A stretch of 52,653 bases of DNA from a virus, in the UHGV virus genome UHGV-0083175; one strand, written 5' to 3'. The translations under genes were made by a program, and so were the position numbers. The notes under the pieces were generated by a model. It made no database searches, had not been told where the DNA came from, and saw only the letters and a list, made by a program, of their open reading frames with translations. Shown piece after piece: positions 6,628 through 20,508 of this stretch (position 1 is the first letter of the stretch; each line of letters starts with the position of its first letter).

Positions 6628-6990
6628 ATGCTCATAGATTTGGTTTTACCTTACCCGCCGACGGTGAACACTTACTGGCGACGCCGTGGCAGCACATATT
6701 TTGTATCAAAAGCCGGGGAGCGTTATCGCCGGGCAGTGGCGCTTATTGTTCGCCAGCAGCGGCTGAAATTAAGACTGTCCGGACGGCTGGCAATAAAAAT
6801 TATTGCAGAGCCACCGGATAAGCGTCGTCGTGACCTGGACAATTTTCTGAAAGCGCCGCTGGATGCGCTGACGCATGCAGGAATGTTAATGGACGATGAG
6901 CAGTTTGATGAAATCAATATTGTACGTGGCAAGCCAGTATCTGGTGGACGGCTGGAGATAAGAATTACAGAGGTGGGTGTGCATGAATAA
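6628..6990 (+). CDS. rusA: Holliday junction resolvase RusA
   Basis: ..PPDKRRRDLDNFLKAPLDALTHAGMLMDDEQ..GGRLEIRITE matches the recalled E. coli RusA. Confidence 0.9.
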   Translation: MLIDLVLPYPPTVNTYWRRRGSTYFVSKAGERYRRAVALIVRQQRLKLRLSGRLAIKIIAEPPDKRRRDLDNFLKAPLDALTHAGMLMDDEQFDEINIVRGKPVSGGRLEIRITEVGVHE

Positions 6991-7648
6991 CCAGTATTTA
7001 CAGTTTGTTCGTGAGCAACTCATGATTGCCACTGCGGATCTTAGTGGGTCGACAAAAGGCCAGCTGGAAGTCTGGCAGGAAAATGCCCTGTTCGATACAG
7101 GGCGTTACAGACGCAAAAAAATTCGTTACCGCGATGAGGTAACCGGAAAAATGATCACGCGGGATAATCCCCCGATCCCGGGTAAACAATCACTGGCGAA
7201 AGGCTCATCAATTGCCCTGGTCAGTCCGGTTGAGTTTTCGACATCATCATGGCGACGCGCCGTTCTGTCTCTTGAAGAACATCATAAAGCCTGGCTGCTG
7301 TGGTGTTACAGCGGTAGCATTTGCTGGGAGCATCAGATCGCGATAACGCAGTGGGCGTGGACTGAATTTAATGCTCAATCCGGTACCAGAAAAATTGCAG
7401 GAAAAACTCTGGTGCGCCTGAAGACGTTGATCTGGTTGGCGGCGCAGGCGGTAAAAGCTGAGCTTTTTGGTGGGGAAGGTTACGAATACCAGGAACTGGC
7501 GTTACTGGTGGGAGTAACAACCAAAAACTGGTCCAAGACATTTACTGGTCACTGGGTTGCAATGAAACACATTTTTCATCGGCTGGATAGTGAAGCTTTA
7601 TTGTTGGTGGAGGGAACTCGTTCAAAACAAAAGGCGGCATTTTCATAG
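6983..7648 (+). CDS. Late-gene antiterminator Q (Qin/QuuQ type)
   Basis: It sits directly downstream of rusA and upstream of a promoter plus short terminated leader. The ATG at 6983 follows GAGGTGG. Confidence 0.75.
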   Translation: MNNQYLQFVREQLMIATADLSGSTKGQLEVWQENALFDTGRYRRKKIRYRDEVTGKMITRDNPPIPGKQSLAKGSSIALVSPVEFSTSSWRRAVLSLEEHHKAWLLWCYSGSICWEHQIAITQWAWTEFNAQSGTRKIAGKTLVRLKTLIWLAAQAVKAELFGGEGYEYQELALLVGVTTKNWSKTFTGHWVAMKHIFHRLDSEALLLVEGTRSKQKAAFS

Positions 7649-7655
7649 CAAAGTA

Positions 7656-7684
7656 TTGCAAAAGTAGACAAAAAGGCATATATT
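7656..7684 (+). promoter_or_regulatory. Late promoter PR' (predicted)
   Basis: TTGCAA (7656-7661) - 17 nt - TATATT (7679-7684), immediately after Q. A -10-like GATATT in the early transcribed region may be the pause element. Confidence 0.5.
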
Positions 7685-9136: not shown

Positions 9137-10195
9137 ATGCTTAATACTGTAAAAATATCCAGTTGTGAGTTAATCAACGCCGACTGCCTGGAATTTATCC
9201 GGTCGTTACCCGAAAATTCTGTTGACCTGATAGTCACGGACCCGCCGTACTTTAAAGTGAAGCCTGAGGGCTGGGATAACCAGTGGAAGGGCGACGATGA
9301 TTACCTGAAGTGGCTGGACCAGTGTCTGGCGCAGTTCTGGCGGGTGCTGAAACCTGCCGGAAGTCTTTACCTGTTCTGTGGCCATCGCCTGGCATCTGAT
9401 ATCGAAATCATGATGCGTGAACGCTTCAGTGTACTGAACCATATTATCTGGGCAAAGCCGTCCGGACGCTGGAACGGGTGCAACAAGGAAAGCCTGAGGG
9501 CGTATTTCCCCGCCACAGAGCGCATTCTGTTCGCGGAACATTATCAGGGGCCGTATCGTCCGAAAGATGCCGGGTATGAGGCGAAGGGCAGGGCACTGAA
9601 ACAGCATGTGATGGCTCCGCTGATTGCTTACTTTCGTGATGCGCGTGCTGCCCTGGGGATAACGGCAAAACAGATAGTGGATGCCACAGGAAAGAAAAAC
9701 ATGGTGTCGCACTGGTTCAGTGCCAGTCAGTGGCAGCTACCGAACGAAAGCGATTATCTGAAATTACAGGCGCTGTTTGCCCGGGTGGCAGAAGAGAAGC
9801 ATCAGCGCGGTGAACTGGAAAAGCCCCACCACCAGCTGCTGGAGACGTATACTTCACTGAACCGGCAGTATGCGGAACTGCAGAGTGAATATAAGCATCT
9901 GCGGCGGTATTTTGGCGTGACGGCGCAGGTGCCGTACACGGATGTGTGGACGCATAAACCGGTGCAGTACTATCCCGGGAAACATCCGTGCGAAAAACCG
10001 GCAGAAATGCTGCAGCAGATAATCAGCGCGAGCAGTCGTCCGGGGGACCTGGTTGCAGATTTTTTCATGGGGTCGGGTTCGACAGTCAAAGCCGCGATGG
10101 CGCTGGGGCGTCGTGCAACAGGCGTTGAGCTGGAGACTGAACGTTTTGAGCAGACGGTCAGGGAAGTTCAGGATTTAGCCAGTCAGAACGGATGA
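9137..10195 (+). CDS. Orphan DNA N6-adenine (beta-class) methyltransferase
   Basis: DPPY motif IV near the N-terminus (..LIVTDPPYF) and motif I FFMGSGST near the C-terminus. No restriction enzyme gene is adjacent. Confidence 0.85.
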   Translation: MLNTVKISSCELINADCLEFIRSLPENSVDLIVTDPPYFKVKPEGWDNQWKGDDDYLKWLDQCLAQFWRVLKPAGSLYLFCGHRLASDIEIMMRERFSVLNHIIWAKPSGRWNGCNKESLRAYFPATERILFAEHYQGPYRPKDAGYEAKGRALKQHVMAPLIAYFRDARAALGITAKQIVDATGKKNMVSHWFSASQWQLPNESDYLKLQALFARVAEEKHQRGELEKPHHQLLETYTSLNRQYAELQSEYKHLRRYFGVTAQVPYTDVWTHKPVQYYPGKHPCEKPAEMLQQIISASSRPGDLVADFFMGSGSTVKAAMALGRRATGVELETERFEQTVREVQDLASQNG

Positions 10196-10235
10196 TATTG
10201 CAGGATTAGTTACGTACCGTTATTATCCTGCGCCC

Positions 10236-10310
10236 GGCCCTTTAGCTCAGTGGTGAGAGCGAGCGACTCATAATCGCCAGGTCGCTGGTTCAAATCCAGC
10301 AAGGCCACCA
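10236..10310 (+). tRNA. tRNA with anticodon CAT (Ile2/Met type), irregular acceptor stem
   Basis: Cloverleaf read by eye: TAGCTCAGTGGT D-arm, CTCATAA anticodon loop, GGTTCAAATCC T-arm, encoded CCA. The 3' acceptor strand is AAGGCC against a 5' strand of GGCCCTT. Confidence 0.7.
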
Positions 10311-10319
10311 TATCACATA

Positions 10320-10396
10320 CCGCCATTAGCTCATCGGGATAGAGCGCCAGCCTTCGAAGCTGGCTGCGCGGGGTTCGAGTCCTCGATGGCGGTCCA
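10320..10396 (+). tRNA. tRNA-Arg (anticodon TCG)
   Basis: Acceptor stem CCGCCAT/ATGGCGG, anticodon loop CTTCGAA, T-arm GGTTCGAGTCC, encoded CCA. Confidence 0.85.
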
Positions 10397-10674
10397 TTAT
10401 CTGCATTATGCGTTGTTGGTTCTGATGAGTGAATCATTGTCTTTTGAGCAACAGGCTATCATATAAGATAGCCTCAGACTTCCTTGTTTATTCTCGCCGG
10501 ATGCTTCGTAGATATTTGCAGGCATCTGTATGCAGGGGTATTATTGCGGCATATATCATCCGGAAAAATAAAAACTACATGCTGATCCGGAGATGATAGT
10601 TACAAGTCCTCCCGGATCCCGCATATTTACTATATTTTATAGATAATTGTTCTTGTTAATATGGAGATGGATAA

Positions 10675-11103
10675 ATGTATTGCCGTGCTGTACCGGTTCT
10701 TGTTTTGATATTAGCCAGTCTGACAACTGGCTGCACAAAAGATGTATCGACAAATAATTATGATGCTTCTCTGTATCACTCAGATAAATTAATAAAGTCG
10801 CAAAATTTGAGCTCATCGGAACGTACCCCTGATGCCAGTGAAGAAATCCGGCTGTATGCCATTCAGGTCAGGAAAGCCATAGAAGAACAGTTAAAGGATG
10901 CGAGTAAGTATTCAGGAAAAGAGTGTTCACTGAGAATGTATATGGCCCCGAATGGTCTTCTGCTACAGGTTAAAAGAGAAAGCGGTGATCCCGATTTATG
11001 TCGTGAAGCGATGAATGCAGTAAAGAATGCTGATATACCATCACCACCGTCTTCAGGAGTATATAAAGCATTTAGAAATGGCGTGCTGGATTTTAAACTC
11101 TGA
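10675..11103 (+). CDS. Lipoprotein carrying a TolA C-terminal (domain III)-like domain
   Basis: Lipobox LTTGC at residues 16-20. The C-terminus ..YAIQVRKAIEEQL.DASKYSGKECSLRMYMAPNGLLLQVKRESGDPDLCREAMNAV...IPSPPS..VYKAFRNGVLDFK parallels recalled E. coli TolA domain III. Confidence 0.85.
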   Translation: MYCRAVPVLVLILASLTTGCTKDVSTNNYDASLYHSDKLIKSQNLSSSERTPDASEEIRLYAIQVRKAIEEQLKDASKYSGKECSLRMYMAPNGLLLQVKRESGDPDLCREAMNAVKNADIPSPPSSGVYKAFRNGVLDFKL

Positions 11104-11238
11104 CAGGGGGAGAAGATTTTCTCCTGTCCTGATGATTTTGGGGCGCTGGAAAGATATTGTGCTGTGAAGTGTTAAATCCCTCACAATTCAGTAAGTTGAC
11201 AGTTGCCTGTCAGACTGAGCATTTGTTAAAAAAATTTC

Positions 11239-11416
11239 GCATGGTGAATCCCCCTGTGCGGAGGGGCGACTGGTGAACGGTATGATCTCTTTGATGATCG
11301 TAAGCGAGAATACGCGGGTTTGGTGTCACCGGGCTGAACTCACCGGGAGGCACCCGGCACCATGCTCATGGTGATACAGAAATGCGGCTTCAGCCCCTCT
11401 CCGGAGGGGCTTTCTT
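11239..11416 (+). ncRNA. Structured RNA module, copy A (unknown family)
   Basis: Closing helix GCATGGTG/CACCATGC, internal hairpins CCCCCT..AGGGG and CCGGG-aggca-CCCGG, and terminator GCCCCTC-tccg-GAGGGGC followed by Ts. Confidence 0.5.
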
Positions 11417-11422
11417 ATGGAC

Positions 11423-11491
11423 AAAAAAAGCCCGCGCTGGGAGACGCGGGCGGCAAGGAATAAACAATAAAACGTGAAGTAATACTTCAAC
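11423..11491 (-). ncRNA. Candidate sRNA, copy 1
   Basis: Minus-strand promoter TTGCGC-N18-TATTAT (plus coordinates 11527-11498), conserved body ACTTCACGTTTTATTGTTTATTCCTTGCC, and terminator GCCCGCG..CGCGGGC followed by T7. Confidence 0.45.
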
Positions 11492-11570
11492 TGGCGAATA
11501 ATACCCGACAGTAATCACTCTGCGCAATAGCGCGGCCTTTTTCGAATTGCGGGCTGTAGTCTCCCTTCTG

Positions 11571-11735
11571 CCGGGTGGCCTGGTTGCAGATTTCTTCATG
11601 GGGTAGGGTTCGGCAGTTAAAGCAGCGATGGCGCTGGGGCGTCGTGCAACTGGCGTTGAGCTGGATACCGGGCGTTTTGAACAGACTGCGCAGGAAATCA
11701 GGGATGTATTTAGCGGGAGCGGTTTGCAGAAGTAA
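11571..11735 (+). pseudogene. 3' remnant of a second N6-adenine methyltransferase gene
   Basis: Nucleotide-level paralogue of 10040-10195. It reads PGGLVADFFMG*GSAVKAAMALGRRATGVEL.., with an in-frame TAG. Confidence 0.8.
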
Positions 11736-11798: not shown

Positions 11799-12524
11799 AT
11801 GGATGTTGCCTGCTCTGTGGTCCTGATTCGCTATCCGATAGATATTTTTCTTGAAAAAGAAAAAGTTTCACTCGATGCCGGAAGTGTTATGCTTGTTGCC
11901 AGAAATATAAGAGGGCTTTTCTGTGCTTATGCCGACAGAGTGAAAATGGCAGATATAAGTAACAGCGTCGTCAATCAGTATCTGGAAAGGGAGTGTGAAC
12001 TGACGGAGTATACACCGACAAAAATGCCTCTTTATTTGATGTCTGATATTTACAATACGGAACTGGCGGAGGCTTTAATAACCCAGCATAGTGAATCCAG
12101 TGATACTTTGAAGGATTTCTCTGTTATAACCGCATTTTCATGTATCTCCTTATTTGCAACAGACAGGCGTCTGCCATTATTTTTGTCCGGTGCTGTAAAT
12201 AATATCAGCTGTAAAGTAAGGGCTATAATTCAGACCGACATATCGGCAGGCTGGATGCTAGGTGTGATTGCATTACAATTGCATATGAGCGAAAGCTTGT
12301 TGAAGCGAAAACTTAAGGATGAAGGTTATAGCTTTAGTCGGTTGTTGCTGGAGGAGCGAATGCGTGTTGCTGTTAATCTTGTATGTTTCCAGCGAGAGTG
12401 TGGACAAGCGATAGCGGAAAAATGTGGTTACTCAAGTAAGTCCTATTTCATTTCTGTATTTCACCAGTATTATGGTGCACCACCTGAGAGCTATGCATAT
12501 TTGCAGAAAGCAGACGTTATCTGA
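11799..12524 (+). CDS. AraC/XylS-family transcriptional regulator (moron)
   Basis: C-terminal double-HTH pattern: W.L..IA..LHMSESLLKRKLKDEGYSFSRLLLEERM..A..L......I..IAEKCGYSSKSYFISVFHQYYG.PP..Y. Confidence 0.85.
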   Translation: MDVACSVVLIRYPIDIFLEKEKVSLDAGSVMLVARNIRGLFCAYADRVKMADISNSVVNQYLERECELTEYTPTKMPLYLMSDIYNTELAEALITQHSESSDTLKDFSVITAFSCISLFATDRRLPLFLSGAVNNISCKVRAIIQTDISAGWMLGVIALQLHMSESLLKRKLKDEGYSFSRLLLEERMRVAVNLVCFQRECGQAIAEKCGYSSKSYFISVFHQYYGAPPESYAYLQKADVI

Positions 12525-16654: not shown

Positions 16655-16730
16655 GCATGCGCAAGGGACCATCGGTGTGTGCCGGTGGTCTTTATATTGT
16701 TGTGAGCTTCCGGATTGCGGGAGACGGGGT

Positions 16731-16946
16731 ATGTACCAGATGGAAAAAATCACAACAGGTGTGTCATACACCACGTCAGCGGTGGGAACGGGCTACTGGT
16801 TCCTGCAGTTGCTGGACAGGGTTTCCCCGTCTCAGTGGGCGGCAATAGGCGTGCTGGGGAGTCTGCTGTTTGGGCTGCTGACATATCTGACGAACCTGTA
16901 TTTCAAAATTAAAGAAGACCGGCGTAAGGCGGCGCGGGGAGAGTAG
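16731..16946 (+). CDS. S: S21-type class II holin (pinholin), dual-start
   Basis: [71 protein letters not shown] matches the recalled phage 21/Stx-phage S. Met1 and Met4 form the dual-start motif. Confidence 0.9.
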
Positions 16947-16949
16947 ACG

Positions 16950-17741
16950 ATGAATAAACAATACGAACTGGTTGTTAAAGGGATAAATATTTACCCGGAT
17001 AAGATTACTGTTACTGTGGCGCTGGAAACTGGTGGGTATACGTCACTGTTGTTGCCAAATGTGGTGATTGATCTTGATCGTGTTGAAGGTGCCCCGCTGG
17101 AGTTTTACGAAGCTGAGGCGAAAAAGAAGGCGAAGCAGTTTTTCATGGATATTGCTGCCGGGTTATGTGAAGGGAACGAACCGTTGCCGGAAAAGCGCCT
17201 CTGTTCAGAAGAGCGGTATACCATACAAATTAACAATGCATATAACACGATACAGTCAGAAAAAGATGATATCGAATCACGCATTGAAAAACTGGAGAAC
17301 AGCGTCGTTGAACTGAATAAAAAACTGTCGGTGCAGATCCCTTCCGAAGGTGAAAAAAAACGCCGTGATGAGCAGTTCGCGGCGTTTTACGATTATTGCC
17401 GGAAAGTGATGAGCAGAAATCTCGCAGAGTGTTTCCGTATTCAAAAAAACAGAGAGCGCTCTGCAAATAGTGAGATTCTGGATAATTTTTTAAAGGGGAC
17501 GCATCTCGCCAGTGATTGTTTCATTGCTCATTCTTTTGGTGGCTTTCATGAGGCCATCAAACATGATGTTGAGAGAAGTCCAGGTATCCTCTGTTCCATT
17601 CCCGTAAGCATCGAAATAGACACAAATACGATAACCGGTGAACTCGTTACCGCCGGAGTCGGTATATTCCGTCATGAGGGGAACGATGCCAAAGGTTCCT
17701 TTACAAAAATCGGGCCGTTCTTTCTGAAGGTAGAGCGATAG
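16950..17741 (+). CDS. Hypothetical protein (inserted cassette, gene A)
   Basis: 263-aa ORF starting 3 nt after the holin stop, with a coiled-coil-like middle. The last ~84 codons are antisense to gene B and may be fortuitous. Confidence 0.45.
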   Translation: MNKQYELVVKGINIYPDKITVTVALETGGYTSLLLPNVVIDLDRVEGAPLEFYEAEAKKKAKQFFMDIAAGLCEGNEPLPEKRLCSEERYTIQINNAYNTIQSEKDDIESRIEKLENSVVELNKKLSVQIPSEGEKKRRDEQFAAFYDYCRKVMSRNLAECFRIQKNRERSANSEILDNFLKGTHLASDCFIAHSFGGFHEAIKHDVERSPGILCSIPVSIEIDTNTITGELVTAGVGIFRHEGNDAKGSFTKIGPFFLKVER

Positions 17742-18122
17742 TTTGTTAAGTACCCATCCGACAGCTCGCTCATTTTGGTTTATTTTCGTATCGCGAAACA
17801 AAAATTCGAAGCGGCCAGATGACGCATGGGTGCAACCAAATACCGGGGCGTATTCATCAACCTTTGGTGTTCCTGAAAACATGCAGTCCGTGCTCTCGAA
17901 TGCAGATGAATTGCTGTTGATCCACTTAACAAAAGAAAAAAAGGTCTGAATCGCTTGTCTGTCTGAATATTCAACAAAATCCTCAAGGTGTGTCTCGATC
18001 AGTTCCGGGTGTTTACGAAAGTCATAATATTGACCGGGACGATATTTATGAGTGGTTGTTTTATCCCATGGTTGTGCTCTGCGTCCCTGTAAACGGAGGT
18101 CTGCCGCTGGATAGATAAGCAT
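17490..18122 (-). CDS. Hypothetical protein (inserted cassette, gene B)
   Basis: 210-aa ORF. The ATG at 18122 follows a GGAGA RBS. The sequence looks globular and no family was recognised. It is oriented against the late operon. Confidence 0.6.
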   Translation of the reverse strand: MLIYPAADLRLQGRRAQPWDKTTTHKYRPGQYYDFRKHPELIETHLEDFVEYSDRQAIQTFFSFVKWINSNSSAFESTDCMFSGTPKVDEYAPVFGCTHASSGRFEFLFRDTKINQNERAVGWVLNKLSLYLQKERPDFCKGTFGIVPLMTEYTDSGGNEFTGYRICVYFDAYGNGTEDTWTSLNIMFDGLMKATKRMSNETITGEMRPL

Positions 18123-18252
18123 AAGTAATCTCCTGGTGGAATGTAATCCACGATCATCCGGGGAAATTAAGAACCCGCCAGTGCCCACCACTGGTGGGGT
18201 GAAGGCTTAACATATCCAGGGATTCGGAACCGATAAATCCTGATAAATATCC

Positions 18253-18786
18253 ATGAACACCAAAATAAAATACGGCCTGTCGGCTGCCGTTCTGGCGCTG
18301 ATTGCCGCAGGGGCGCCTGCGCCTGATATTCTCGACCAGTTTCTGGATGAAAAAGAAGGTAACCACACCACGGCATACCGTGATGGTGCGGGTATCTGGA
18401 CCATTTGTCGTGGTGCCACCAGGGTGGATGGCAAACCTGTCGTCCCGGGCATGAAGTTGTCGAAGAAAAAATGCGACCAGGTTAACGCCATTGAGCGTGA
18501 TAAGGCGCTGGCATGGGTGGAGAAAAACATCCGGGTGCCACTGACCGAACCCCAGAAAGCGGGGATCGCGTCATTCTGCCCGTATAACATTGGCCCCGGT
18601 AAGTGTTTCCCGTCGACGTTTTATAAACGAATTAATGCAGGCGATCGCAGGGGAGCGTGTGAAGCGATTCGCTGGTGGATTAAGGACGGTGGCAGGGACT
18701 GCCGTATCCGCTCAAATAATTGTTATGGTCAGGTATCCCGTCGTGACCAGGAGAGCGCGCTGGCGTGCTGGGGTATCGACAGATAA
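18253..18786 (+). CDS. R: SAR endolysin (R21-type lysozyme)
   Basis: An N-terminal signal-anchor-release segment KYGLSAAVLALIAAGA, followed by a lysozyme core (EG....AY.D..GIWTICRG). 177 aa. Confidence 0.9.
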   Translation: MNTKIKYGLSAAVLALIAAGAPAPDILDQFLDEKEGNHTTAYRDGAGIWTICRGATRVDGKPVVPGMKLSKKKCDQVNAIERDKALAWVEKNIRVPLTEPQKAGIASFCPYNIGPGKCFPSTFYKRINAGDRRGACEAIRWWIKDGGRDCRIRSNNCYGQVSRRDQESALACWGIDR

Positions 18787-19006: not shown

Positions 19007-19120
19007 ATGAAAGGCATTGAAGTGGAGACGCCAGCCAGTCTGGATTTAACAAGAGCGGCAGCTTTTGCCATTCGTATTGTGGCCATTGCTGTTCTGGTCT
19101 GGGCAATCCGTTGGTGGTGA
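19007..19120 (+). CDS. Putative 37-aa membrane peptide upstream of Rz
   Basis: [37 protein letters not shown], with GAGG 9 nt upstream. Its stop is 1 nt before the Rz ATG. Confidence 0.35.
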
Positions 19121-19121
19121 T

Positions 19122-19589
19122 ATGAACCGTGTTCTGTGTGTGGTGATTATTGTCCTGCTGGTAGCCTGTGGTGTGCTTAGTCTGGGGCTGAATCATTACT
19201 GCGATAACGCCATCACCTATAAAGCGCAGCGCGATAAAAAAGCCAGAGAGCTGGAGCTGGCAAACGCAACCATTACTGACATGCAGCAGCGCCAGCGTGA
19301 TGTTGCAGCGCTCGATGCCAGATACTCGAGGGAATTAGCCGATGCGAGAGCTGAAAATGAAACTCTGCGTGCTGACGTTGCCGCTGGTCACCGCAGCCTG
19401 CGGATCAACGCCACCTGTCCAGGTCCCGTGCGTGAAGCCACCGGCACCTCCGGTGTGGATAATGCAACCGGGCCCCGACTGGCAGACACCGCTGAACGGG
19501 ATTATTTCATCCTCAGAGAACGGTTGATGACAATGCAGAAGCAGCTGGAAGGGGCGCAGGAATATATCCGCACTCAGTGTATTAACTAG
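19122..19589 (+). CDS. Rz: i-spanin Rz
   Basis: N-terminal TM segment [19 protein letters not shown] and a coiled-coil periplasmic domain. It contains the embedded Rz1. Confidence 0.85.
19342..19527 (+). CDS. Rz1: o-spanin Rz1 (embedded lipoprotein)
   Basis: +1-frame ORF inside Rz with lipobox LVTAAC and a proline-rich mature region. Confidence 0.8.
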
Positions 19590-20175: not shown

Positions 20176-20508
20176 ATGAAAATGAAAAGAAATCTTCCGT
20201 TAATTATTTTGTTGTCTTCTCTGGTTATGGGCTGTACGCAACATAAAACAGATATGCCCCGACAGTTGGTTAAGGCATTACCACAATATCCGGCCTATGC
20301 AGCGGCAAATTATATAAAGGGACGGGTTGATGTGAAGTTTGATATTGGTGCTGATGGTACTGTCACCCGAATTGAGTTTATCCGTTCAGAGCCGCACCAT
20401 CTGTTTGATGAGCAGGTTGTAAAGGCGATGGCAAAATGGCGATTTGAGAAGGACAGGCCGCGTAAAGGCGTGAAGAAAACGTTTATCTTTAGTCCTTCTG
20501 CACCCTGA
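20176..20508 (+). CDS. Lipoprotein carrying a TonB C-terminal-like domain
   Basis: Lipobox LVMGC. The stretch ..LPQYPAYAAANYIKGRVDVKFDIGADGTVTRIEFIRSEPHHLFDEQVVKAMAKWRFE parallels the recalled TonB_C motif P.YP..A.....G.V.V.F.V...G.V.....S.P...F...A..A...W.F. Confidence 0.8.
   Translation: MKMKRNLPLIILLSSLVMGCTQHKTDMPRQLVKALPQYPAYAAANYIKGRVDVKFDIGADGTVTRIEFIRSEPHHLFDEQVVKAMAKWRFEKDRPRKGVKKTFIFSPSAP

Follow-up and report, generated by a model that had tools for sequence, protein, structure and literature searches.

A prophage-encoded lipoprotein resembling a free-standing TolA domain III, a candidate decoy for bacteriocin and phage import

We analyzed UHGV virus genome UHGV-0083175, a DNA stretch of 52,653 nucleotides whose full length is referred to here as the window, with a focus on the gene at positions 10675-11103 of the plus strand. 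Sequence comparison and structural modeling fully support describing its product as a lipoprotein, predicted to be exported, that amounts in essence to TolA domain III (TolA III) standing by itself. The gene, taken from the listing of open reading frames (ORFs), begins with ATG, encodes 142 amino acids and is preceded by the Shine-Dalgarno sequence GGAG (10663-10666, plus strand), read from the sequence 8 nt 5' of the start codon. We propose below, with due reservation, that the protein could protect the lysogen by competing with TolA for invading bacteriocins and phages.

A lipid-anchored TolA domain III

The N-terminus of the protein, MYCRAVPVLVLILASLTTGC, satisfies a lipobox rule of the PROSITE PS51257 type, formulated as a basic N-terminal region and a hydrophobic stretch followed by [LIVMFWSTAG]2-[LIVMFYSTAGCQ]-[AGS]-C, with the cysteine at position 15-35. 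Arg4 lies within the first seven residues, the segment VLILASLTTGC fits the pattern, and Cys20 is the predicted lipidated residue, placing the putative lipoprotein signal peptide with its lipobox L-T-T-G-C at residues 1-20 (10675-10734, plus strand). A low-complexity tether of about 30 amino acids follows (residues 21-53; 10735-10833, plus strand), which matches no Pfam domain, is predicted to be disordered by AlphaFold2 (predicted local distance difference test score, pLDDT, <50 for residues 1-50) and is the most variable portion of the family alignment. The lipobox cysteine is invariant in one of the family alignments (A2), and the lipobox was also found in the alleles and the paralogue that we checked. 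A cysteine at the same position is present in a divergent allele (MGFRSAS...IIIGC), in the paralogous protein TolA2, which is introduced below, and in at least 49 short relatives.

In E. coli, an aspartate at position +2 serves as the inner-membrane retention signal by which lipoproteins avoid the Lol pathway. Because the residues after Cys20, threonine at +2 and lysine at +3, provide no such aspartate signal, the predicted destination of the window lipoprotein is the periplasmic side of the outer membrane. Across the family the +2 residue is threonine, lysine, serine, alanine or one of several others, and aspartate does not occur at +2 among the lipoboxes listed.

The remainder of the protein (residues 54-142; 10834-11100, plus strand) was assigned to TolA III by profile, sequence and structural comparison. 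The Pfam profile PF06519 (TolA C-terminal) matched residues 52-140 with an E-value of 4.6e-22 and 78.5 bits (cutoff 25), spanning profile positions 7-96 of 96, and a phmmer search of the sequences in the PDB returned only E. coli TolA III entries (1S62, 3QDP, 2X9A and 1TOL; E ~4e-25). Residues 54-141 could be aligned without gaps to TolA 333-420, such that residue n of the query corresponds to TolA n+279, and 45 of the 88 aligned positions are identical (51%); a correspondence of this extent is well in excess of chance. The AlphaFold2 model, calculated from a 24-sequence family alignment, is confident for the domain (pLDDT ~90) that follows the disordered residues 1-50. When this domain was submitted to Foldseek, the best five matches were all E. 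coli TolA III, with root-mean-square deviations (rmsd) of 1.0-4.3 Å and template-modeling scores normalized to the target, TM(target), of 0.51-0.88; 2x9a_B, which represents the g3p-bound form of TolA III, and 3qdp superimposed with rmsd values of 1.0 Å and 2.0 Å, respectively (E ~1e-8), the g3p-TolA fusion 1tol accounted for the TM(target) of 0.51, and the other four ranged from 0.69 to 0.88. These results bear out the initial annotation, which had described, from the DNA alone, a signal peptide with lipobox LTTGC, a short linker and some 90 C-terminal residues tracking TolA III, and had named a structural comparison with TolA III as the check: its motif string is reproduced in the alignment, and the model superimposes on 2X9A and 3QDP.

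Features that stabilize TolA III and engage its ligands are largely recognizable in the window protein. Cys84 and Cys109 correspond to the disulfide cysteines C363 and C388 of TolA and are invariant in all relatives aligned. The β3 strand reads VLDFK compared to PLDFK in TolA (416-420), with D139 and K141 equivalent to D418 and K420, and no other surface element is as well conserved among the phage families, L138 and D139 being near-invariant. Proline substitutions at D418 and K420 leave TolA unable to bind TolB, colicin N and g3p (PMC4339652). The colicin A site on TolA, comprising β2 residues L375-P380 plus K368, K379 and K396 (PMC3365938), is kept in part: LLQVKR occupies the positions of TolA 375-380, K100 and K117 are present in place of K379 and K396, and K368 and P380 are replaced by Tyr89 and R101, respectively. 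Since one of the three lysines that contact colicin A has been lost, not every TolA ligand need be bound.

Distinction from TolA and extent of the family

The same comparisons distinguish the window protein from TolA proper. The membrane anchor of TolA (domain I) has no counterpart, as the N-terminus is a lipoprotein signal and only TolA 333-420 is matched, and the helical domain II (~250 amino acids) likewise has no counterpart, the distance between Cys20 and the domain being covered by ~30 disordered residues. Thus, the window protein has in common with the E. coli TolA III structures (1TOL, 2X9A, 3QDP/3QDR and 1S62) the fold, the disulfide cysteines and the LDFK motif of β3, but it is without domains I and II, the coupling to TolQR and the force driven by the proton-motive force that characterize E. 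coli TolA; it carries a lipid anchor predicted to reside in the other membrane and is encoded in the presumed late operon of a prophage, whereas TolA is encoded in tol-pal. The gene lies outside the tol-pal operon, within a lambdoid prophage, between phage tRNAs and lysis genes, and its nucleotide similarity to chromosomal tolA was below detection by blastn.

Public annotation nevertheless names the protein after TolA. The RefSeq entry, WP_000271631.1, is called 'tolA: cell envelope integrity protein TolA'. The NCBIfam model NF007065 scored 100.1 bits against a cutoff of 213, and TIGR02794 scored 72.8 bits against a cutoff of 59.45 from the C-terminal 95 residues alone; the RefSeq label can be traced to TIGR02794, whose cutoff is exceeded through these residues. 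Type-B copies of the gene, although intact at 142 amino acids, are listed by the Prokaryotic Genome Annotation Pipeline (PGAP) as a tolA pseudogene 'missing N-terminus' (7115-7375 in both locus L003 and locus L004). Misnaming as TolA or as a pseudogene is systematic and extends across hundreds of genomes and plasmids, amounting to thousands of records.

The PGAP label implies that the phage acquired a decaying tolA fragment and carries no functional gene, and a C-terminal frameshift in some database members might be cited to the same effect. However, the gene has its own start codon, Shine-Dalgarno sequence and lipoprotein signal, and tolA has no such signal. The ORF is intact at 142 amino acids in all 80 of the IMG/VR contigs that we retrieved, the ratio of nonsynonymous to synonymous substitution rates (dN/dS) of 0.27-0.36 relative to a 67%-identical allele indicates purifying selection, and the architecture is kept across many clusters at 50% identity. 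On the grounds of its own start and lipobox, its intactness and purifying selection, we rejected the fragment or pseudogene view, which we regard as highly improbable.

To describe the distribution of the gene, complete E. coli genomes were searched by blastn, which identified it in 897 of 5,426 (16.5%), 91 of these at ≥99% identity and 774 at ~80%. Among isolated phages, a single one of 50,697 phage records (mEp460_ev081) carries the gene. Two arrangements are seen in IMG/VR. In the arrangement found in the window, the order is methyltransferase, tRNAs, TolA1, in some cases an AraC-type gene, nanS-p and holin; in the commoner one, Q is followed by a TolA1 that is 67% identical and bears the signal MGFRSASILTLIISGIIIGC, then TolA2, holin and various endolysins. 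TolA2 is a second TolA-III lipoprotein (131 amino acids; lipobox VAGC) that shares 24% identity with the window protein and is located between TolA1 and holin in E. coli prophages and in phage mEp460_ev081 (7526-7921 in L003; 6861-7256 in L002). No second TolA-like gene of this kind was found in the window.

The search was not confined to E. coli, and statements on taxonomic breadth are based on the names attached to protein clusters and on individual contigs. Proteins of the TolA2 type are found widely among Citrobacter, Enterobacter, Serratia, Klebsiella and Raoultella. A phmmer search of 1.84 billion cluster representatives gave 294 matches; among the 149 next-best of these, 88 are at most 170 amino acids long, and at least 49 of those 88 have a lipobox. 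In Serratia a TolA-III lipoprotein gene is chromosomal and adjoins icd (7001-7444 in L090 and L091, both metagenome contigs), and in Klebsiella quasipneumoniae one is chromosomal amid metabolic genes (L092, 7001-7429). On IncFII plasmids of K. pneumoniae, a TolA-III lipoprotein gene lies behind a gene for a thioredoxin-fold protein (L093, 6406-7435; L096, 5406-6435), and this Thioredoxin_2/DsbA-like neighbor may serve the TolA-III disulfide. The phage domain stands about as far (49-53%) from the Serratia lipoproteins as from E. coli TolA III, and those lipoproteins are themselves ~60% identical to TolA III. Judging from these matches, TolA-III lipoproteins form a large family whose members reside on chromosomes, plasmids and prophages of Enterobacterales, and the gene is not peculiar to the prophage in the window.

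The window protein belongs to PHROG 5772, annotated 'unknown function', and BFVD contained no structural neighbor at E ≤ 1e-3. No study of TolA-III lipoproteins was found in the full-text literature, a body of text that most subscription journals are outside of.

The divergence within this family raises the question of whether the TolA-III scaffold still serves TolA ligands or has been retargeted to a new partner, for example a component required for the DNA entry of competing tailed phages or a protein of the prophage itself. Identity to TolA III amounts to only 51%, surface positions vary among alleles, such as those equivalent to K368 (Tyr, His or Asn) and D377 (Gln or Glu), and the divergent paralogue TolA2 that accompanies TolA1 in most prophages suggests diversification of specificity. 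On the other hand, the fold and the edge strand used by all known β3 ligands are the best-conserved surface feature, and the gene neighborhood yielded no candidate for an alternative ligand. Nor are we aware of any TolA-dependent tailed coliphage, and we consider retargeting to be rather improbable.

A TonB-like companion and the decoy proposal

The window encodes a second lipoprotein of comparable design, which the initial annotation had correctly picked out as a mimic of TonB. The gene at 20176-20508 (plus strand) specifies a protein of 110 amino acids that starts MKMKRNLPLIILLSSLVMGC-TQH..., has the lipobox LVMGC with threonine at +2, and consists of a TonB C-terminal domain (CTD), as judged from its translation and from matches to Pfam TonB_C (E 5.8e-15) and to E. 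coli TonB CTD structures in the PDB (E 3e-16). It is located after Rz/Rz1, the position held by bor in lambda, and is found in 415 of the 5,426 complete E. coli genomes and also in Stx1a phages. The two lipoprotein genes share a contig in six of the eight type-A IMG/VR contigs judged long enough to span both, among the matches listed, which cover 80 of 176 TonB-like loci. PHROG 1267, to which the TonB-like protein was matched at 1.9e-42, is labeled 'Rz-like spanin'. We rejected a spanin assignment in view of the canonical Rz/Rz1 and of the Pfam and PDB matches to the TonB CTD, and the 'Rz-like spanin' label is probably wrong, given that an Rz/Rz1 pair is already encoded in the window.

The same combination was encountered on an unrelated kind of mobile element. 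A tblastn search found TolA-III matches on 726 plasmids, about half of which are mobilizable ColRNAI plasmids of 10-12 kb from K. pneumoniae. In one of them, p44-3 (NZ_CP025464), a TolA-III gene and a TonB-CTD gene form a pair on the minus strand (L095, 2115-2848). The first gene encodes a TolA-III lipoprotein of 123 amino acids with the lipobox LLTAC, a short linker and the C-terminus APLDFRP, and the second, which overlaps it by 4 bp, encodes 121 amino acids comprising a signal peptidase I (SPase I) signal peptide and a TonB C-terminal domain. The pair adjoins a bacteriocin-immunity-lysis operon, from which it is divergently transcribed, and whose toxin combines a cloacin translocation domain with a receptor domain of the colicin-E2 type and a cytotoxic domain of the E3 type. 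In total, TolA-III/TonB-CTD pairs are present on 379 plasmids, mostly 10-12-kb ColRNAI plasmids of clinical Klebsiella. The sole mention of these genes that we found is one sentence, without interpretation, in a survey of Klebsiella bacteriocins (PMC10269471).

As in the window, the plasmid-borne version joins a lipobox and a short linker to TolA III, with a free TonB CTD alongside. It differs in sequence (~37% identity to the window protein over the domain, by tblastn), in its TonB part, which is soluble and secreted through an SPase I signal where that of the window is a lipoprotein, and in its genetic organization, the two plasmid genes overlapping in one operon on a bacteriocin plasmid and the two window genes being carried by a prophage. 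Free TolA III and free TonB CTD thus occur on two unrelated kinds of mobile element, and this recurrent pairing favors a decoy that blocks import. To our knowledge, all colicin-like bacteriocins, as well as several phages, enter the cell by way of two periplasmic hubs, TolA and TonB. A copy of the docking domain of such a hub, when uncoupled, could do no more than compete.

Based on these observations, we propose that the TolA-III lipoprotein acts as a competitive decoy beneath the outer membrane that makes the lysogen tolerant, an interpretation to which we give not quite an even chance. Lol would deliver the lipoprotein to the outer membrane, on the side of the periplasm, where the flexible tether of ~30 residues would present a complete, disulfide-stabilized TolA III. 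Because the anchor and the long helical domain of TolA are missing, the protein would neither couple to TolQR nor transmit force, and because the ligand-binding edge strand is kept, it could still bind what TolA III binds. A decoy at this site would be placed where the translocation domains of Tol-dependent (group A) bacteriocins, threaded through porins, and the g3p N1 domain of filamentous phages first emerge, and would capture them before they reach energized TolA. The TonB-CTD lipoprotein might act likewise on Ton-dependent (group B) bacteriocins and on TonB-dependent phages. Reported dissociation constants for TolA are ~40 μM for TolB and ~1 μM for colicin N (PMC7391070, PMC4339652). As TolB is bound far more weakly than colicin N, moderate levels of the decoy could be protective and spare Tol-Pal; at very high, Q-dependent late expression, the same competition would also be expected to loosen the outer membrane.

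There is experimental precedent for both sides of such competition. Levengood-Freyermuth, Click and Webster reportedly observed in 1993 (J Bacteriol 175:222) that TolA's C-terminal domain, placed in the periplasm, conferred on E. coli tolerance to group A colicins and to the Ff phage f1, together with leakiness. That laboratory fragment embodies the same idea, an uncoupled TolA III competing with native TolA, but it was artificial, soluble and overexpressed, whereas the window protein is natural, predicted to be lipid-anchored, diverged and borne by a mobile element. Conversely, periplasmic g3p-N1 sequesters TolA, which makes the cells resistant to colicin A and lowers phage uptake by 4 logs (PMC10424213). 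Exclusion by the g3p of Ff phages employs the same interface to block Tol-dependent entry and is the mirror image of what we propose: the inovirus supplies a ligand that masks the receptor, and the element in the window supplies a copy of the receptor domain.

The decoy interpretation, which the initial annotation had raised alongside an effect on vesiculation, is strengthened by the conservation of the strand that binds TolB, g3p and colicin N, by the predicted outer-membrane location and by the Klebsiella TolA-III/TonB-CTD pair. In addition, we counted the maintenance of the gene (897/5,426 genomes, 80/80 contigs intact and dN/dS ~0.3) in favor of a function.

Several observations weigh against a protective decoy. 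We found no convincing promoter or terminator belonging to the TolA-III gene itself, and its position would make it a late gene, transcribed with the Q-dependent operon. The position equivalent to K368 of TolA, which makes the cation-π contact with Tyr58 of colicin A, is Tyr, His or Asn among alleles, and PADLOC returned no match to any of its defense models. The commonest arrangement places the gene directly before holin, which also fits a role in lysis. Each TolA/TonB pairing represents a single lineage, and hence only two independent events. Finally, a competitor of Tol-Pal should cost a gut bacterium some of its resistance to bile and detergents (PMC7391070).

With regard to transcription, a scan for σ70 consensus sites near the gene found one 9/12 site (10515-10544), the number of sites being below the mean of shuffled sequence. 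Alignment of the 5' regions across alleles contained no conserved upstream element, and no terminator was scored directly 3' of the gene, the hairpin after the stop codon being non-significant (z = -0.95). With no convincing promoter or terminator of its own found, expression in the uninduced lysogen, as required by a protective decoy, would have to be presumed. The initial annotation had called the gene a prophage moron. The prophage context is well supported by Q, holin, endolysin, Rz/Rz1 and terminase, and moron-like traits are present in the form of an atypical GC content (41% for the gene, compared to 51.5% for the whole window and 52-56% for the flanks) and of variable presence at a fixed genome position, the slot of the Shiga toxin (Stx) genes; the autonomous promoter and terminator of a moron were not recovered convincingly by the scans, the alignment or the hairpin test.

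These same features could suit an accessory of lysis and release, in which late-made TolA III titrates TolB, shuts down Tol-Pal, loosens the outer membrane and promotes blebbing, with faster or fuller lysis, vesicle shedding and release of phage, or of Stx in related phages, as the outcome. The gene is always located between Q and holin and in the same orientation, the slot is that of stx, a late-expressed cargo, and no clear promoter of its own was found; in the commonest arrangement, TolA1-TolA2-holin forms a fixed module joined to differing endolysins. Moreover, pair-bearing Klebsiella plasmids likewise depend on a release (lysis) protein, and tol-pal defects lead to leakiness and hypervesiculation (PMC7391070). 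Yet the phage already possesses a full holin-endolysin-Rz/Rz1 set, and it is not obvious how the TonB-CTD partner, which recurrently accompanies TolA III on mobile elements of two kinds, would help to weaken the outer membrane. Plasmid and chromosomal family members are not located beside lysis genes, and the pair on the Col plasmids diverges from the bacteriocin-lysis operon; from these members outside lysis cassettes, it follows that the function of the family is not tied to phage lysis. The loss of Tol-Pal also acts mainly at division and is slow relative to the lysis clock. We prefer the decoy because its TonB partner would have no obvious outer-membrane-weakening role and its plasmid and chromosomal relatives are not linked to lysis, and we view a lysis accessory, the main rival, as unlikely.

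The chromosomal genes suggest a further possibility, namely that the protein tunes Tol-Pal in the intact cell, through buffering of TolB or through vesicle output, with tolerance as a side effect; it would then be a lysogenic-conversion trait affecting stress tolerance, colonization or toxin delivery. The single genes in Serratia and K. quasipneumoniae, in their housekeeping surroundings, suggest such a role in cell physiology, the TolB-binding strand is conserved, and a review of Tol-Pal states that the output of outer-membrane vesicles could be regulated via TolB interactions (PMC7391070). However, this explanation does not account for the repeated pairing with a TonB CTD or for carriage by bacteriocin plasmids and prophages, nor did a link to regulation emerge; the neighboring AraC-type gene occurs in some loci only. 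We consider it to have a low probability, comparable to that of retargeting to a new ligand.

Extending the import-blocking decoy beyond the window, we suggest that mobile elements of Enterobacterales, including lambdoid prophages, cloacin-type Col plasmids and IncF plasmids, might deploy free copies of TolA III, in the form of an outer-membrane lipoprotein, and of the TonB CTD, in lipoprotein or secreted form, often together, as a general 'import-hub decoy' defense; we put this forward more tentatively than the decoy function of the window protein. If correct, envelope-level immunity would gain a new class, carried by roughly one of every six E. coli genomes, in which a host import hub is mimicked and the invader is neither destroyed nor denied a single receptor by masking. 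The outcome would be broad tolerance, covering bacteriocins of both groups, A and B, along with phages that depend on Tol or Ton, one small gene blunting a whole class of bacteriocins as well as filamentous phages. The gene family could underlie some of the colicin tolerance that is widespread yet unexplained in wild strains, and the proposal, if true, would be relevant to bacteriocin- and phage-based therapeutics against Shiga toxin-producing E. coli (STEC) and Klebsiella.

Small outer-membrane lipoproteins that act in exclusion or lysogenic conversion are familiar from phages, examples being Cor of φ80 and N15 and Bor of lambda. The T5 protein Llp, as described in a preprint, is likewise a small phage lipoprotein that acts on the envelope entry route of competitors, as we propose here (bioRxiv 10.64898/2026.03.26.714494). 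Llp and Cor block one outer-membrane receptor, FhuA, whereas the window protein would mimic a periplasmic hub and thereby affect a whole class of invaders; no relation of the window protein to Llp, Cor or Bor in sequence or fold was found. We rate the TolA III domain and the principle of envelope-level exclusion as known, and we did not find a description of a natural, mobile, lipid-anchored receptor-domain decoy with a TonB counterpart.

Prophage setting and the stx slot

The window is a lambdoid prophage with >99% identity to prophages of many STEC strains. Its late region contains, in order, Q, a hypothetical gene, a DNA methyltransferase gene, two tRNAs, the TolA-III gene and a 3' remnant of a methyltransferase gene, followed by an AraC-type regulator, a nanS-p-type esterase, holin, endolysin, Rz/Rz1, the TonB-CTD lipoprotein and terminase, and all of the listed genes from Q to terminase share one strand. 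The late antiterminator Q (6977-7648, plus strand) was identified with Pfam Phage_antiter_Q (E 1e-90), and a σ70-like site directly after it (7656-7684), found in the promoter scan by consensus match only, is the probable late promoter pR'.

The TolA-III gene appears to be part of an exchangeable cassette. The 3' end of the DNA methyltransferase gene (10040-10177, plus strand) constitutes the first copy of a 138-nt direct repeat revealed by a repeat search, and the methyltransferase 3' remnant (11571-11708), a pseudogene fragment in RefSeq, is the second copy, 83% identical to the first. This pair of repeats, which brackets the tRNAs and the TolA-III gene, looks like a recombination scar of module exchange. 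The two phage tRNA genes (10235-10396, plus strand), one with a CAT anticodon and the other tRNA-Arg(TCG), were assigned using ARAGORN, RefSeq and comparison with φ24B. ARAGORN calls the tRNA at 10235-10309 Met (CAT), and RefSeq and the literature on Stx phages treat it as an ileZ-type tRNA-Ile2. The third member of the tRNA trio of Stx phages (argO/Ser) is absent from the window.

Downstream of the TolA-III gene, a non-coding segment of ~390 bp (11181-11572, plus strand), aligned to phages by megablast at 93% identity, forms the 3' edge of the stx slot. It matches the region directly 3' of stx2 in Stx2 phages; in the Stx2 phage φ24B, stx2AB comes after the tRNAs and precedes the conserved segment of ~400 bp. 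Since the TolA-III gene lies between the tRNAs and this post-stx segment, it occupies the stx slot of its sister phages, a position that bears on which cargo this hotspot selects for.

The lysis cassette comprises holin (16677-16946; Pfam Phage_holin_2_1), endolysin (18253-18786; Pfam Phage_lysozyme), Rz (19065-19589; Pfam Phage_lysis) and, embedded in Rz, Rz1 (19342-19527; recognized by its lipobox), all on the plus strand. Between holin and endolysin are two further ORFs, one with DUF1327 and an unknown C-terminal half (16950-17741, plus strand) and one on the minus strand without a Pfam or PADLOC match (17490-18191), which together form an unexplained insert inside the cassette. Just 3' of the TolA-III cassette, the AT-rich gene at 11799-12524 (plus strand) encodes an AraC/HTH_18 regulator assigned to PHROG 1450, a family of unknown function. 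Only a subset of the related loci carries this gene, which may belong to the Psr/PatE-type AraC-like regulators of STEC prophages.

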